Shown piece by piece: positions 28,393 to 38,397 of a stretch of 41,928 nt of DNA. Each line of letters starts with the position of its first letter. The stretch's first letter is position 1. The position numbers were made by a program, and so were the translations under genes. The notes beneath the pieces are model-generated. The model made no database searches. It saw only the letters and a program-made list of their open reading frames with translations, and was not told where the DNA came from. This stretch comes from a virus. Its lineage: Duplodnaviria; Heunggongvirae; Uroviricota; Caudoviricetes. The stretch is from IMG/VR virus record IMGVR_UViG_2648501336_000002; one strand, written 5' to 3'.

Positions 28393-29067
28393 ATGATTGA
28401 TACTACCGATATCCTTTCTCAAAACATCAAGTACCTGATGGACAAAGCCAAGATAAGCTCGATAACTGAGCTGGCACGTCGGTTACAGCTGAACCAACCA
28501 ACGCTACACAGGCTGGTATCAGGAGAGGTGAAAGATCCGAAATACGCAACGTTAAAGCAGATCGCCGACTACTTCCACGTGTCACCAATAGACTTGGCAG
28601 AAAGGAGCCTTCAAGAAATGGAGAAAGAGGACGCGACAGGTATAAAAACGTATATTTCTCTTAGGTTTAATAAAGTACCTGTTTTGGGAAACACTCAGCT
28701 AGGCGTTGGAGGACTTTGGAGCGACACCCAATATTCAGTAGGTAGCAGTGATGGTTTCATATACTGGCCGACAAAGGATGAAGATGCATACGCCCTGAAA
28801 TGTGTTGGTGATTCAATGATGCCTAGAATCAAAGAGGGGGAGTTCGTAATCGTCGAACCCAACCACGACTACACTCCTGGTGATGAAGTACTTGTGGTTA
28901 CCCGGGAAGGTGAGGTCATGGTTAAAACCTTCTTGTTCGAACGCGATGGCCTGTTCCATCTAATGTCTGTAAATGAAGATCATCCACCAGTCAGAGTACC
29001 ACGCGAAAACATTGAAAAAATCCATTACGTGGCGGGGATCGCCAAATCCGCGCTACGTATGTACTAA
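28393..29067 (+). CDS. cI: CI-like repressor (HTH plus S24 LexA-type autopeptidase domain)
   Basis: 224 aa; N-terminal HTH and C-terminal GDSM Ser with a downstream Lys (VMVKTF). Confidence 0.8.
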   Translation: MIDTTDILSQNIKYLMDKAKISSITELARRLQLNQPTLHRLVSGEVKDPKYATLKQIADYFHVSPIDLAERSLQEMEKEDATGIKTYISLRFNKVPVLGNTQLGVGGLWSDTQYSVGSSDGFIYWPTKDEDAYALKCVGDSMMPRIKEGEFVIVEPNHDYTPGDEVLVVTREGEVMVKTFLFERDGLFHLMSVNEDHPPVRVPRENIEKIHYVAGIAKSALRMY

Positions 29068-29151: not shown

Positions 29152-29180
29152 TTGACACAAAATCCCATAACGCATATAAA
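29152..29180 (+). promoter_or_regulatory. Near-consensus sigma70 promoter overlapped by operator-like motifs (OL/pL-like)
   Basis: TTGACA (29152..29157), 17-nt spacer, TATAAA (29175..29180); the spacer and -10 contain ATAACGCATAT, matching the OR-region motif. Confidence 0.45.
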
Positions 29181-29485
29181 TACGATATCGCATAATTAAT
29201 GCGTTTTTTAATACTGGCTCTTTAACAAACTGAACCGCGTGACAGGTAAGCCGCAGTACTCCTGGCAAAACGAAATAGCACCCGATGGGATCGAGGTAAG
29301 CGCCGAGTCCGTATGCGTACGGTAAGCGTAGAGGACAACACCGCGACAAACTGATAAGTCACGCAAGTTGAAACGCCCCGACGATGGGGCGCTTAGTTCC
29401 TTTTGGGGTGGGGTGAAGATCAGTCCATTGAGTCAATCCGAAGTTCAGCATCTACCACTACACCACCACCAAAGAGAACTGCTAA

Positions 29486-30010
29486 TCATCTGGCAGGTTG
29501 TAACGGTGCAGGAGTTTTGCCACTGACTTCTATATTTCGGGGAAATTTATATTCAGCGGAGCATTTATGACACTTGAGAATTTTATAAGCGGCATTAGAA
29601 GTATGGTATTGAAGTATAGACTTCATACCCGACTCATAGCATGTAGTACAAAGATAATGAGGCTTGAACTCAGGATCGTCAGTAGGCTTCAGTACATAGA
29701 CCACCGTATTGGTAATCGGGTGGTACATTTCATAGTTCATTTTCTCACTATCCCAATCCTGTTTCTTTTCCAGAAGGGATTCGAGTTCAACAATGCGCTG
29801 TTTAGCTTCGTTCAAAAGCTCCGTTAGTGCGAATTGTCCAGTACGCGCATCAATTAGTTTATCAAGTAGATCGATAGTTTTACTTTTAACATTGTAATCC
29901 ACCTGCAACGCATTAACTTCTTTTGCTAAATCAACAGCACCTTTCAAAGCACCACCAGCACTAGTGGCCGCCTCAGTTATACGCCGTACAAGTCCTTTTT
30001 CTTCAGACAT
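29486..30010 (-). CDS. Coiled-coil protein with C-terminal C4 zinc ribbon (hypothetical), convergent with cI
   Basis: 174 aa; helical N-terminus then CTTC...CHKC (CxxC-x22-CxxC); AGAGAGAAT Shine-Dalgarno-like upstream. Confidence 0.5.
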   Translation of the reverse strand: MSEEKGLVRRITEAATSAGGALKGAVDLAKEVNALQVDYNVKSKTIDLLDKLIDARTGQFALTELLNEAKQRIVELESLLEKKQDWDSEKMNYEMYHPITNTVVYVLKPTDDPEFKPHYLCTTCYESGMKSILQYHTSNAAYKILKCHKCSAEYKFPRNIEVSGKTPAPLQPAR

Positions 30011-30030
30011 CTTAATTCTCTCTAAAACTA

Positions 30031-30080
30031 TAGGGGTAAAGAGATATTAGCCGAATTCTCGCTGTAGGGGTACAGAGAGA
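30031..30080. repeat. Direct repeats TAGGGGTA(A/C)AGAGA x2 (candidate regulator-binding sites)
   Basis: Copies at 30031..30044 and 30065..30078, 34 bp centre to centre, in the 5' region of the 174-aa gene. Confidence 0.3.
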
Positions 30081-30149
30081 GCCATCTCGTCTGACGTGGT
30101 TAAAAGCAGGCATTCGCTGACATCCAAGTAATTGCTGTGTGTAGCCTTT

Positions 30150-30176
30150 GCCCGCCTCAAGTGACGGGCTTTTTTA
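30150..30176 (+). terminator. Rho-independent terminator immediately upstream of the early-left genes
   Basis: GCCCG-10 nt-CGGGC followed by TTTTTT. Confidence 0.5.
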
Positions 30177-30234
30177 TGTCTGAAAGCGCACTCGCAACAG
30201 CGTGCTCCCCGATATGAAAAAAGGAATACAACCG

Positions 30235-33203: not shown

Positions 33204-33833
33204 TCACTCAGGAATCTTAATCTTCCTCAATTCTTTATTTAGTTCACAGATCTTCTTCTTAGACGGGAAAGTATCATACATCCAAAAACCAACAGTCTCT
33301 AAAACTATTGTCATAACCATATACACAAGATAATTTAAAAGGCCTTCATTTTGCCCTATGGAAATAATGCAGATAATAGAAAAAAGGATAAACAGCACAA
33401 AACACAGAAAGGAAAACAGACGACTAATAATAAATAAAAAACCTGAAAAATTAACATTGATGAAAAACACTCCGTTATCTTTCTCTATATAATTCTGAAG
33501 CTTAATCACCTGATTTATATACTGTCTTTTTTCTAATCTATTGCAAATGTAAATAACATCACTTCGGTTATAAGAAGATTGCAATTTCAGCGCATCACGA
33601 ATAATTTTATCATTTATTCTTTTTTCTATGGCACTCTTATCCTCCTTATCCAGATAACGTTCATACTTAACTAAATATAAAATTAACTTCTTGACATATT
33701 TAGGCTCTTTATACTTATAATTAAAAATGATCTTTCTTATCCAGACTCCCATAACAATCAAACATGAAAAAATATATCCAGCTATTTTCTCCAGATGCTC
33801 TGTATGGTCAATCAAGTATTGGATCATATGCAT
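33204..33833 (-). CDS. AT-rich membrane protein (about 3 TM), antisense moron; candidate exclusion / abortive-infection protein
   Basis: 209 aa, strongly AT-rich, Lys/Ile/Tyr-rich; hydrophobic segments near the N-terminus and at about residues 125-170; opposite strand to the flanking replication genes. Confidence 0.5.
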   Translation of the reverse strand: MHMIQYLIDHTEHLEKIAGYIFSCLIVMGVWIRKIIFNYKYKEPKYVKKLILYLVKYERYLDKEDKSAIEKRINDKIIRDALKLQSSYNRSDVIYICNRLEKRQYINQVIKLQNYIEKDNGVFFINVNFSGFLFIISRLFSFLCFVLFILFSIICIISIGQNEGLLNYLVYMVMTIVLETVGFWMYDTFPSKKKICELNKELRKIKIPE

Positions 33834-36723: not shown

Positions 36724-37293
36724 TTAGTCAATGCCTTTTTGATTGAACTTCTGATTCTCCAGTATGCTTTGCAGCTCAATATTATCATTTGCAGCGGTTT
36801 GTTTATGCTCATGATATTTTTCTTGCGTATAATTTCTTTCTCTTAGTTTCTGTGCGTAATTATTAGAAATAATATCATGACGATCTTGTAATACTTGTTC
36901 AAGTTGACTTTTAAAGTCCTCTATCTTTTCATTAGAAATAACATTTTTGTACTTTTCAATATCACGGCGAAGTTCTTTTTCTTTCTTCTTATTAATGCTT
37001 AATAACTGTCGATTAACGCTACCTAAGGACCATTTAAACCCAATCGACTTTATCCAATGCGCCAGAAACATAGCGCAACTGGGAAGCATTAATAAAAGAA
37101 ATGGCTTTATTGTATTTAAATCAGAACCAATATACGGAAAACGACCGTCCCACGAGGACACCAGTAATGTTAAAAAACCAGTGATGCCACCAGCAGCAAC
37201 ATTAGAAATCAGAGGGACTTTTTCGTAGCTATCAGGTTTAGAAGCGCTACTCAAACGTCCCTCCTTTGACTGATCTTCCAGCACGAATGGCAT
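36724..37293 (-). CDS. Membrane protein with charged coiled-coil C-terminus (third gene of the antisense cassette)
   Basis: 189 aa, AT-rich; two hydrophobic helices (about residues 30-48 and 63-85) then a Lys/Glu-rich helical tail. Confidence 0.45.
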   Translation of the reverse strand: MPFVLEDQSKEGRLSSASKPDSYEKVPLISNVAAGGITGFLTLLVSSWDGRFPYIGSDLNTIKPFLLLMLPSCAMFLAHWIKSIGFKWSLGSVNRQLLSINKKKEKELRRDIEKYKNVISNEKIEDFKSQLEQVLQDRHDIISNNYAQKLRERNYTQEKYHEHKQTAANDNIELQSILENQKFNQKGID

Positions 37294-37518: not shown

Positions 37519-38397
37519 CTATAAGATGCCGTGTACTTTAACAACTATGTACGTTTTGTCCAGCGAATTCAAGTTCTCACGGACGAGCAAATCAACGCAG
37601 TAAGCATCACTAAAAACACCAGGTTCTCTTCCCGTACTAACACGTTGTAAGAACTCAGTATCTTCTATAGACACGCTGATTGTGTCATCGCCATAGTTGA
37701 CTCGCCAGCCTGTGTTTTTATCCTTATGAATAGTCAAAAATGTGATTAGAGCCTCTTCAATCACCCTTTCAGACAAGGACTGCACTACAGGAACGCGCCT
37801 ATATCTGAACGGTTCAATATTATCTTCGTGCACCTTAATCAGCTCAACCCCCTGTTGAGTTGAAATTTTAAGCGATTCGTATCCTTCCTTTTGCAAAGGA
37901 TTATGAATTAACTTCGATAAGGATTTGCGTATGCTTGGTGAGGCAAGTAAAGGCCGGAAATATGACGGGGCTATAATTTCCTCACCATCATCCATAACTA
38001 TTTTACAGTCTCCTTCCGCTGTTAAAGTCAACCGTTTTATTTGCCTACCATTGATCTGACGAATTAAGTCAATGAGAGTATTTCCTGCTGCGAGTGCAGT
38101 TGTACCTCCAAGCCCAATAATGCTTAATATATTCAAATGGTCAAGTGGATTTTGAATAACATCAATCAAATACTCAAATGAGCCTTCCTTAAAAGGCTCA
38201 ACCTCAACATTAATACACTCACTAGTGCCATTGACAACCAAATTAACTTCTTTAAGCAAGTTGTTTAGTCCATTCAATGACTCAGTTAAAACATCCAAAT
38301 CTATTTTATGATCTGCTAGTGCGGGACCATCATATTTAACAACTAATTTATCAGTAATATTTTCTTCTTGCTGGACATCTGTATAAGCTGAGGTCAT
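37519..38397 (-). CDS. Hypothetical soluble protein (first gene of the antisense cassette)
   Basis: 292 aa, AT-rich, no recognisable catalytic motif; AAGGAA Shine-Dalgarno 7 nt upstream of the ATG at 38397. Confidence 0.5.
   Translation of the reverse strand: MTSAYTDVQQEENITDKLVVKYDGPALADHKIDLDVLTESLNGLNNLLKEVNLVVNGTSECINVEVEPFKEGSFEYLIDVIQNPLDHLNILSIIGLGGTTALAAGNTLIDLIRQINGRQIKRLTLTAEGDCKIVMDDGEEIIAPSYFRPLLASPSIRKSLSKLIHNPLQKEGYESLKISTQQGVELIKVHEDNIEPFRYRRVPVVQSLSERVIEEALITFLTIHKDKNTGWRVNYGDDTISVSIEDTEFLQRVSTGREPGVFSDAYCVDLLVRENLNSLDKTYIVVKVHGIL

Follow-up and report, generated by a model that had tools for sequence, protein, structure and literature searches.

We analysed the IMG/VR virus record IMGVR_UViG_2648501336_000002, a stretch of 41,928 nucleotides referred to here in its entirety as the window, which is a complete prophage with integrase, repressor/cro, a Q-like antiterminator, small and large terminase, portal and a tail module. 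Our subject is a minus-strand open reading frame (ORF) of 174 amino acids that lies beside the repressor gene, together with a pair of direct repeats upstream of it. By sequence and by predicted fold, the product of this ORF is homologous to the Rip1 protein of phage HK446 and so falls, as a divergent member, in the Rip1 family, which is already known. The gene, an accessory cassette of an Escherichia coli prophage, probably specifies an abortive-infection protein of this family, with expression from a sieB-type promoter and antisense silencing. The gene and its convergent neighbour are:

29486 to 30010, minus strand: rip1-like gene, 174 amino acids, ATG start, stop codon included (ORF list)
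28393 to 29067, plus strand: prophage repressor with helix-turn-helix (HTH) and Peptidase_S24 domains (Pfam, 5e-18; phrog_4 'transcriptional repressor', 1e-34)

The repressor is encoded on the plus strand, and therefore the two genes converge. A plus-strand operon begins at 30202 with ORFs of 60 and 300 amino acids and a DUF2800 exonuclease, followed further along by a DNA polymerase, the last label being the annotation at the homologous position in phage vB_EcoM-606R2 (hereafter 606R2), a myovirus-type relative. Hence the 174-amino acid ORF has on one side the repressor, with which it converges, and on the other the early operon, from which it diverges, an arrangement that the original prediction had read correctly from the sequence and that the ORF list, Pfam and PHROGs bear out. 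The ORF list also contains a plus-strand ORF of 86 amino acids (29567 to 29827) that overlaps the gene. Past the repressor, the other strand encodes a small cro-like HTH protein and a primase of the VapE type. This primase, together with the DUF2800/DNA-polymerase module and the myovirus-type relative, sets the phage apart from strictly lambdoid ones. The original guess of an exclusion moron in a lambdoid-type slot is thus upheld with respect to the cargo, through the Rip1 homology, but not with respect to a strictly lambdoid phage.

A divergent Rip1-family protein

The assignment to Rip1 is made because of a search of PDB sequences, which is decisive. Residues 3 to 159 of the 174-amino acid protein match chain L of entry 9oox, named 'ring interacting pore 1 (Rip1)', with a phmmer E-value of 8.4e-45. 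This entry is the Rip1 of phage HK446 in complex with the small terminase of phage T6, and HK446 gp37, as translated from the GenBank record, is the same as the 9oox chain across the stretch that aligns with the window protein. Identity between the window protein and HK446 Rip1 is 46–48%. PHROGs places the protein in phrog_1244 (1.8e-43), a family of unknown function, and Pfam, NCBIfam and PADLOC returned nothing above threshold for this ORF. The 9oox match supplies a probable function, where none had been assigned before.

Structure prediction, which had been proposed as a check, agrees with the sequence search. An AlphaFold2 model, with a mean predicted local distance difference test score (pLDDT) of 79, has helices at residues 2–16, 21–34 and 39–92, followed by a beta-rich C-terminal domain. 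When this model was submitted to Foldseek, chain M of 9oox was the top match (E=3.5e-11, probability 1.0, 46% identity in the structural alignment), with a template modelling (TM) score, normalised to the target, of 0.61 over 123 columns; no other entry was significant, the next matches having E>0.6. The helical N-terminal half and the C-terminal domain with CxxC-x22-CxxC that were first described from the sequence are present in sequence and model alike, and the protein may be divided into three parts:

29900 to 30010, minus strand: N-terminal amphipathic helices, codons 1–37, presumed membrane/pore segment (AlphaFold2 helices, hydrophobic moment, review of Rip1)
29735 to 29899, minus strand: single long helix or stalk of 54 residues, codons 38–92 (AlphaFold2 helix 39–92, pLDDT 77–91)
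29537 to 29734, minus strand: beta-rich C-terminal domain with four cysteines, codons 93–158, presumed ring-binding sensor (pLDDT 80–91)

The peak 18-residue hydrophobic moment of the whole protein starts at residues 5–9 (muH 0.49, mean H 0.05), and its strongest amphipathic segment, as a property of the sequence, is residues 5–26. The CxxC motifs are at residues 121–124 and 147–150, separated by 22 residues, and none of their four cysteines (C121, C124, C147 and C150) varies among the 14 close and 40 diverse homologues compared. Among the 40 diverse homologues Y93 is also invariant, and L76, W86, Y105, H118, L133 and Q134 are nearly so. The family is large: a profile search recovered 2690 representatives of 50%-identity clusters at E≤1e-3, of which 1084 were at E≤1e-10, and members among the matches listed are mostly 140–180 amino acids in length. 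Several family members end in a YDP[FY] motif (DYDPYNQ, RYDPFSE, EYDPFNP), among them those of 606R2 (L001:4443-5012), phage JBD30 (L003:2983-3477) and Citrobacter (P0005); the window protein and HK446 Rip1 are without this ending.

The window protein shares with HK446 Rip1 its length class, N-terminal amphipathic helix, long helix, four cysteines and predicted fold; both are encoded by prophages on the strand opposite the early-left genes, and both genes are preceded by the same block of about 100 bp with both repeats, which is described below. The two systems differ in backbone, which is lambdoid in HK446 and that of a VapE/DUF2800/DNA-polymerase myovirus-type prophage in the window, and in position, since HK446 rip1 lies between N and cIII whereas the window gene is next to the repressor. 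Furthermore, the window protein has a 14-residue C-terminal tail beyond HK446 Rip1, and more than half of its residues differ, for which reason its range of triggers is probably different. The type found in Pseudomonas Casadabanvirus phages (JBD30 gp30, DMS3, D3112 orf25, MP38 ORF25) is approximately 30% identical (tblastn, 1e-13 to 5e-14); it resembles the window protein in its cysteine pattern and in being encoded against the direction of its neighbours, but it has no upstream block of the sieB/sas type. JBD30 gp30 is on the opposite strand between ORFs of 166 and 550 amino acids, both annotated 'hypothetical', a position which fits that of the original Rip1 gene, placed by a review of Patel et al. 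(2026) between the genes for the two terminase subunits, small and large.

The Rip1 family itself is already known from that 2026 paper (Patel et al., Nature 651:1060), and what we say of its mechanism is drawn from two reviews and a meeting report on this work, and from the PDB title. The reviews describe Rip1 as a prophage abortive-infection protein whose pore is assembled around portal or small-terminase rings. By their account, Rip1 alone is not toxic, and phages escape through the portal in Pseudomonas, where the portal is the trigger of the resident Rip1 type, and through the small terminase in E. coli. Cryo-electron microscopy, as reviewed, revealed an 11-mer ring of small terminase surrounded by 12 copies of Rip1, with the N-terminal amphipathic helices forming the pore and the C-terminal half touching the ring, and the reported outcome is liposome leakage and premature lysis. 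By analogy with this work, the Rip1-like protein of the window would be made constitutively in the lysogen and would be harmless there. Late in infection by a foreign phage, the C-terminal domains of about 12 copies would bind a ring-shaped oligomer of portal or small terminase; assembly on this template would bundle the N-terminal helices into a pore in the inner membrane, and death of the cell would precede maturation of the progeny.

Alleles in a variable slot

Comparison with 606R2 delimits the cassette precisely. The flanks are 97–98% identical, and similarity ends at 29403 and resumes at 29973, positions 29404 to 29972 being replaced in 606R2 by a 44%-identical allele of 189 amino acids. 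The junctions lie just past a hairpin on the 3′ side of the gene and within codon 13, the former being marked by the following feature:

29374 to 29391: GC-rich hairpin and weak candidate terminator, read from the sequence, 95 nt past the rip1 stop codon and adjoining the left border of the exchanged cassette

The two alleles share 57% identity in the N-terminus and 39% in the C-terminal domain, and the N-terminus is the best-conserved part among enterobacterial alleles generally. The window allele was found in 27 of 5426 complete E. coli genomes, with an identical locus of 901 bp; the carriers include enterotoxigenic E. coli (ETEC) H10407, O103:H2 12009 and O45:H2. Other related E. coli prophages have in this slot the 606R2 allele, a small plus-strand gene or no annotated gene. 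In E. coli F1022 the slot holds an annotated plus-strand gene of 68 amino acids (L005:1651-1857), and in E. coli O55:H7 CB9615 an unannotated plus-strand ORF of 64 amino acids with its own CxxC...CxxC (L006:2304-2498). In Providencia, a prophage with this architecture has an allele of 49% identity; the allele of an Edwardsiella prophage, next to its repressor, is 76% identical, and a lambdoid prophage of Pantoea has rip1 between N and cIII, antisense to pL. The gene is an accessory, diversifying cassette in a variable slot, oriented against the flanking early genes. Divergent alleles in one slot are natural material for mapping how the trigger specificity of the Rip1 sensor changes.

The same comparison bears on an alternative that we regard as unlikely, in which the protein has the Rip1 fold and acts in another way, for example by sequestering the terminase or portal ring and blocking packaging without a pore, or by sensing some other oligomeric phage protein. 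The protein is only 46–48% identical to the characterised Rip1, the C-terminal domain is the part most diverged from the same-slot allele, and the family has, according to a review, at least two different triggers in different hosts, all of which would accommodate a changed action. However, the amphipathic N-terminus, the long helix and all of the family-invariant residues are kept, and conservation is highest in the N-terminus, because of which the effector part appears to have been retained. We therefore prefer the reading of the protein as a pore-forming Rip1.

The upstream repeats and the sieB-type block

Upstream of the gene are two direct repeats of the form TAGGGGTA(A/C)AGAGA, namely TAGGGGTAAAGAGA at 30031 to 30044 and TAGGGGTACAGAGA at 30065 to 30078, which are the only matches in the window; 100 shuffles of the sequence produced no such repeats. 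They extend to 17 nt, as CTATAGGGGTAAAGAGA and CTGTAGGGGTACAGAGA, with a spacing of 34 nt. The original prediction was right that direct repeats exist but not that they are inside the 5′ region of the ORF: both are upstream of the ATG, and the feature that it drew as far as 30080 takes in the non-coding repeats. The features of this region are:

30028 to 30044: proximal repeat, CTATAGGGGTAAAGAGA on the plus strand and ACCCCTATAG on the gene strand, kept as CACCCCTACAGT in all aligned loci
30062 to 30078: distal repeat, CTGTAGGGGTACAGAGA on the plus strand, centre of the inverted repeat TCTCTCTGTA-CCCC-TACAGCGAGA
30011 to 30117: sieB-type promoter/sas-like antisense block containing both repeats, conserved in 18–21 distinct enterobacterial rip1 loci
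30044 to 30049, minus strand: candidate rip1 −10 hexamer TAATAT; T, A, A and T of TAnnAT (T74, A75, A78, T79) invariant in 18 of 18 aligned loci

The block adjoins the ATG at 30010 and its opposite strand is antisense to the leader, ribosome-binding site and start codon. On the gene strand its consensus is TGCCTG-CTTTTAACCACATCAGGCGAGGTGGTTC-N4-TGTACCCCTACAGCGAGAA-N7-TAnnAT-N8-CACCCCTACAGT-N18-ATG. The loci compared came from a scan of viral contigs and from exact-protein look-ups, and a scan of genome contigs gave three loci. Between divergent alleles the block is more conserved than the coding DNA (85% vs 57%, 75% vs 58% and 76% vs 61% identity). In the distal inverted repeat seven of nine pairs have changed on both sides, and 84–88% of cells are paired on either strand.

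The block is not confined to rip1. A blastn search detected it in 139 phage records, among them lambda variants, VT1-Sakai, HK620 and P22, the match to P22 being 82.6% identical over 85 nt (E=9e-14). In P22, a lambda variant, VT1-Sakai and a Klebsiella phage the gene that it immediately precedes is sieB; in HK620 the block lies upstream of hkaP (L046:1306-1800), which encodes a divergent Rip1-family protein (27% identity, E=2e-11) with all four cysteines aligned. HK620 hkaP carries the old annotation 'putative superinfection exclusion protein'. The sequence of P22 sas RNA given in PMC13397905 aligns with the plus strand of the window throughout 30005 to 30117; this RNA, defined there by RNA-seq, is the exact antisense of the block, begins opposite the start codon and holds both CUGUAGGGGU motifs. 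Because the block precedes sieB, and its opposite strand aligns to P22 sas, the repeats belong, on this sequence comparison, to a sieB-type promoter/sas module as its two conserved CUGUAGGGGU / ACCCCTACAG motifs, and are not a private operator.

The resemblance between the two systems extends to the arrangement of their genes. The sieB/Esc/sas region of P22 and lambda has, like the window, an upstream stretch of about 100 bp with both ACCCCTACAG motifs and a region of antisense RNA, and in lambdoid phages sieB and enterobacterial rip1 take the same slot in the same orientation. SieB and Rip1 are alike expressed from the prophage and abort the lytic cycle of a superinfecting phage, as by analogy the window gene would. 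The proteins are unrelated: BLASTP of the window protein against P22 SieB gave at best an 8-residue match with E=0.09. In P22, sas arises by processing of the pL transcript. As cited in PMC12197685 and PMC10883804, Ranade and Poteete (1993) described SieB as a hydrophobic protein of 192 amino acids with an internal start for Esc, and the pairing of P22 sas with sieB mRNA as a switch of translation from SieB to Esc. Our search of the literature, which did not extend to the primary Rip1 paper, found no paper linking Rip1 with sieB. A preprint on the Pas small RNA concerns another locus.

If TAATAT serves as the −10 hexamer, the distal repeat would fall in the −35 region and the proximal repeat at approximately +1 to +10 of the predicted rip1 mRNA, that is, at its 5′ end, because transcription would proceed from this sieB-type −10.

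These observations also dispose, to a large extent, of the idea that the locus is a 'regulatory' moron with a repeat site specific to the gene. In its fuller form, this alternative makes the protein a zinc-ribbon DNA-binding regulator that binds the direct repeats to govern either its own expression or that of the early-left operon, and we consider it very improbable. It could draw on the ribbon-like spacing of the four cysteines, on the presence of two 14–17-nt repeats just upstream, and on the position of the distal repeat within an inverted repeat whose arms covary. However, the same repeats precede sieB, which encodes an unrelated protein, in P22, lambda and Shiga toxin (Stx) phages, and so they are not a site specific to the window protein, while the 76%-identical Edwardsiella homologue and the Pseudomonas type have no such block. 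Moreover, the homologous Rip1 domain binds a protein ring, as stated in a review and seen in PDB 9oox, and there is no significant match between the window protein and any DNA-binding family.

Several other readings of the block were considered and dropped. A LexA box was rejected by eye for its spacing (CTGT-N6-ACAG, not N8), as was a sigma-32 −10 element (CCCCTA and not CCCCAT, with the wrong spacing); sigma-54 and integration host factor (IHF) sites were also dropped by eye, and a DnaA box, TTATCCACA, was abandoned as perfect in a subset of loci only. The homologue without the block, in a prophage of Edwardsiella ictaluri (L007:2406-4525), is 62 nt downstream of a co-oriented gene for 510 amino acids with a faint match to ORC/CDC6-like ATPases, and the pair may represent a two-gene arrangement.

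Proposed antisense transcription and self-silencing

Two further features, on the strand opposite rip1 and on either side of it, bear on how the gene might be silenced:

29152 to 29180, plus strand: candidate early-left promoter TTGACA-N17-TATAAA, which agrees with the consensus at 11 of 12 positions, follows closely on the repressor gene and points through rip1 in the antisense direction
30130 to 30175, plus strand: segment like the RprA 3′ end with an intrinsic terminator (stem 30150–30169, T-run 30170–30175)

The candidate promoter is overlapped by ATAACGCATA, and because the only other exact copy of this sequence is in the cro/repressor intergenic region (28348), the promoter is probably an early-left promoter controlled by the repressor; a copy with one mismatch is at 29185. 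Directly after the promoter is a palindrome, CGCATAATTAATGCG, followed by T6 (29152–29203), which could serve as operator or as terminator. Between the candidate early promoter and rip1 is a leader of 200 nt that contains three plus-strand copies of GGTAAGC(G/C) (29245–29333), and is 98% conserved in comparison with 606R2. The early genes stand behind at least two hairpin terminators and no N-like gene was seen, which suggests that some antitermination device is in place. A put-like structured RNA in the leader (29186–29410) was considered and rejected, as folding was no better than that of shuffled sequences (z=+0.6).

By analogy with P22 sieB/sas, rip1 would be transcribed in the lysogen from the sieB-type promoter, with its −10 hexamer at 30049–30044. 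When the prophage itself grows, the early-left promoter (candidate 29152–29180) would fire, and its transcript would cross rip1 in the antisense direction, then the sas-like block, and next meet the plus-strand terminator at 30150–30175. This transcript would give rise to an RNA like sas, able to pair with the leader, the ribosome-binding site and the start codon of rip1; synthesis of new Rip1 would stop, and because of this the phage would not abort its own growth. The layout mirrors that of HK446, in which pL is followed by N and then anti-rip1, and in both HK446 and the Pantoea prophage rip1 lies within the pL operon, flanked by N and cIII, in the antisense direction.

Plus-strand transcription during lytic growth, probable from the inferred promoter, and the overlapping 86-amino acid ORF might be taken to mean that the minus-strand ORF is a non-coding shadow, as the original prediction had allowed, but this has a negligible chance of being correct, for the minus-strand product has a solved homologue and thousands of relatives of similar length with conserved cysteines, tryptophan and tyrosine, a pattern of conservation by which the shadow reading is already refuted.

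Several results weigh against our view of the locus as a Rip1-family gene with a sieB-type promoter and antisense silencing. With regard to the protein, the allele shares only 46–48% of its residues with HK446 Rip1 and about 30% with that of Pseudomonas, and the AlphaFold2 model superposes moderately on the complexed chains of 9oox (TM 0.48–0.61). With regard to its expression, no sigma-70 promoter passed a consensus scan upstream of the ORF, the candidate −10 hexamer TAATAT is without a recognisable −35, and the hairpins after the candidate early promoter may terminate its transcript. The block itself gives little sign of a structured RNA on one strand in particular: RNAalifold consensus energies are weak on both strands (−2.9 and −3.7 kcal/mol), single-sequence folding has z-scores of −0.05 and −0.36, and the share of cells paired by a three-hairpin model is 78.1% and 78.6% for the two strands. 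Cases of A-C to G-U change that seemed to favour a plus-strand RNA were not upheld in the totals. Finally, no Esc-like internal product is evident, and no internal start is conserved among the aligned rip1 homologues.

We offer as a tentative proposal, nearly as likely to be right as wrong, that rip1 has captured the promoter/sas switch of sieB, and that the module of about 100 bp with two CUGUAGGGGU motifs is a portable socket for unrelated abortive-infection cargo, self-silenced by a sas-like RNA. The cargo would be SieB or one of several Rip1 alleles, and the module would have moved from lambdoid phages into a different prophage family, with the RprA-3′-like terminator after it. Were this true, it would show how a prophage can tolerate a suicide protein that recognises the conserved rings of virion assembly, and the shared sieB/sas module suggests how the phage escapes death by its own ring-sensing protein. 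What is added here to the known family is the presence of rip1 in a non-lambdoid E. coli prophage family, the swapping of its alleles within one slot, and the identity of the repeats as parts of a sieB/sas control module that rip1 genes share. A 'hypothetical protein' of prophages in pathogenic E. coli thereby gains a name and a testable mechanism, with a bearing on phage host range and on the failure of phage therapy.

The plus-strand terminator beyond the block has a likeness of its own. The 24 nt before it resemble the conserved 3′ end of the small RNA RprA (AATTGCTGTGTGTAGCCTTTGCCC), and 30130 to 30175 resembles the 3′ conserved stretch and terminator of that RNA. The Rfam model for RprA (RF00034) scored 45.5 bits (E=9e-5), below the gathering threshold of 70, with a high-confidence alignment at the 3′ end and a low-confidence one across the 5′ two-thirds, which overlap the sas-like block. 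This RprA-like segment is part of the prophage backbone, present in relatives with or without rip1, and approximately 70 further E. coli genomes match this 80-bp RprA-like piece only. The prophage may here imitate processed RprA, or the two may simply have a terminator in common.

Three further genes in the window are oriented against the replication operon, at 33204–33833, 36724–37293 and 37519–38397, all on the minus strand. They belong to phrog_10579, phrog_15878 and phrog_3243, families without known function, and are further candidates for morons or defence cargo.

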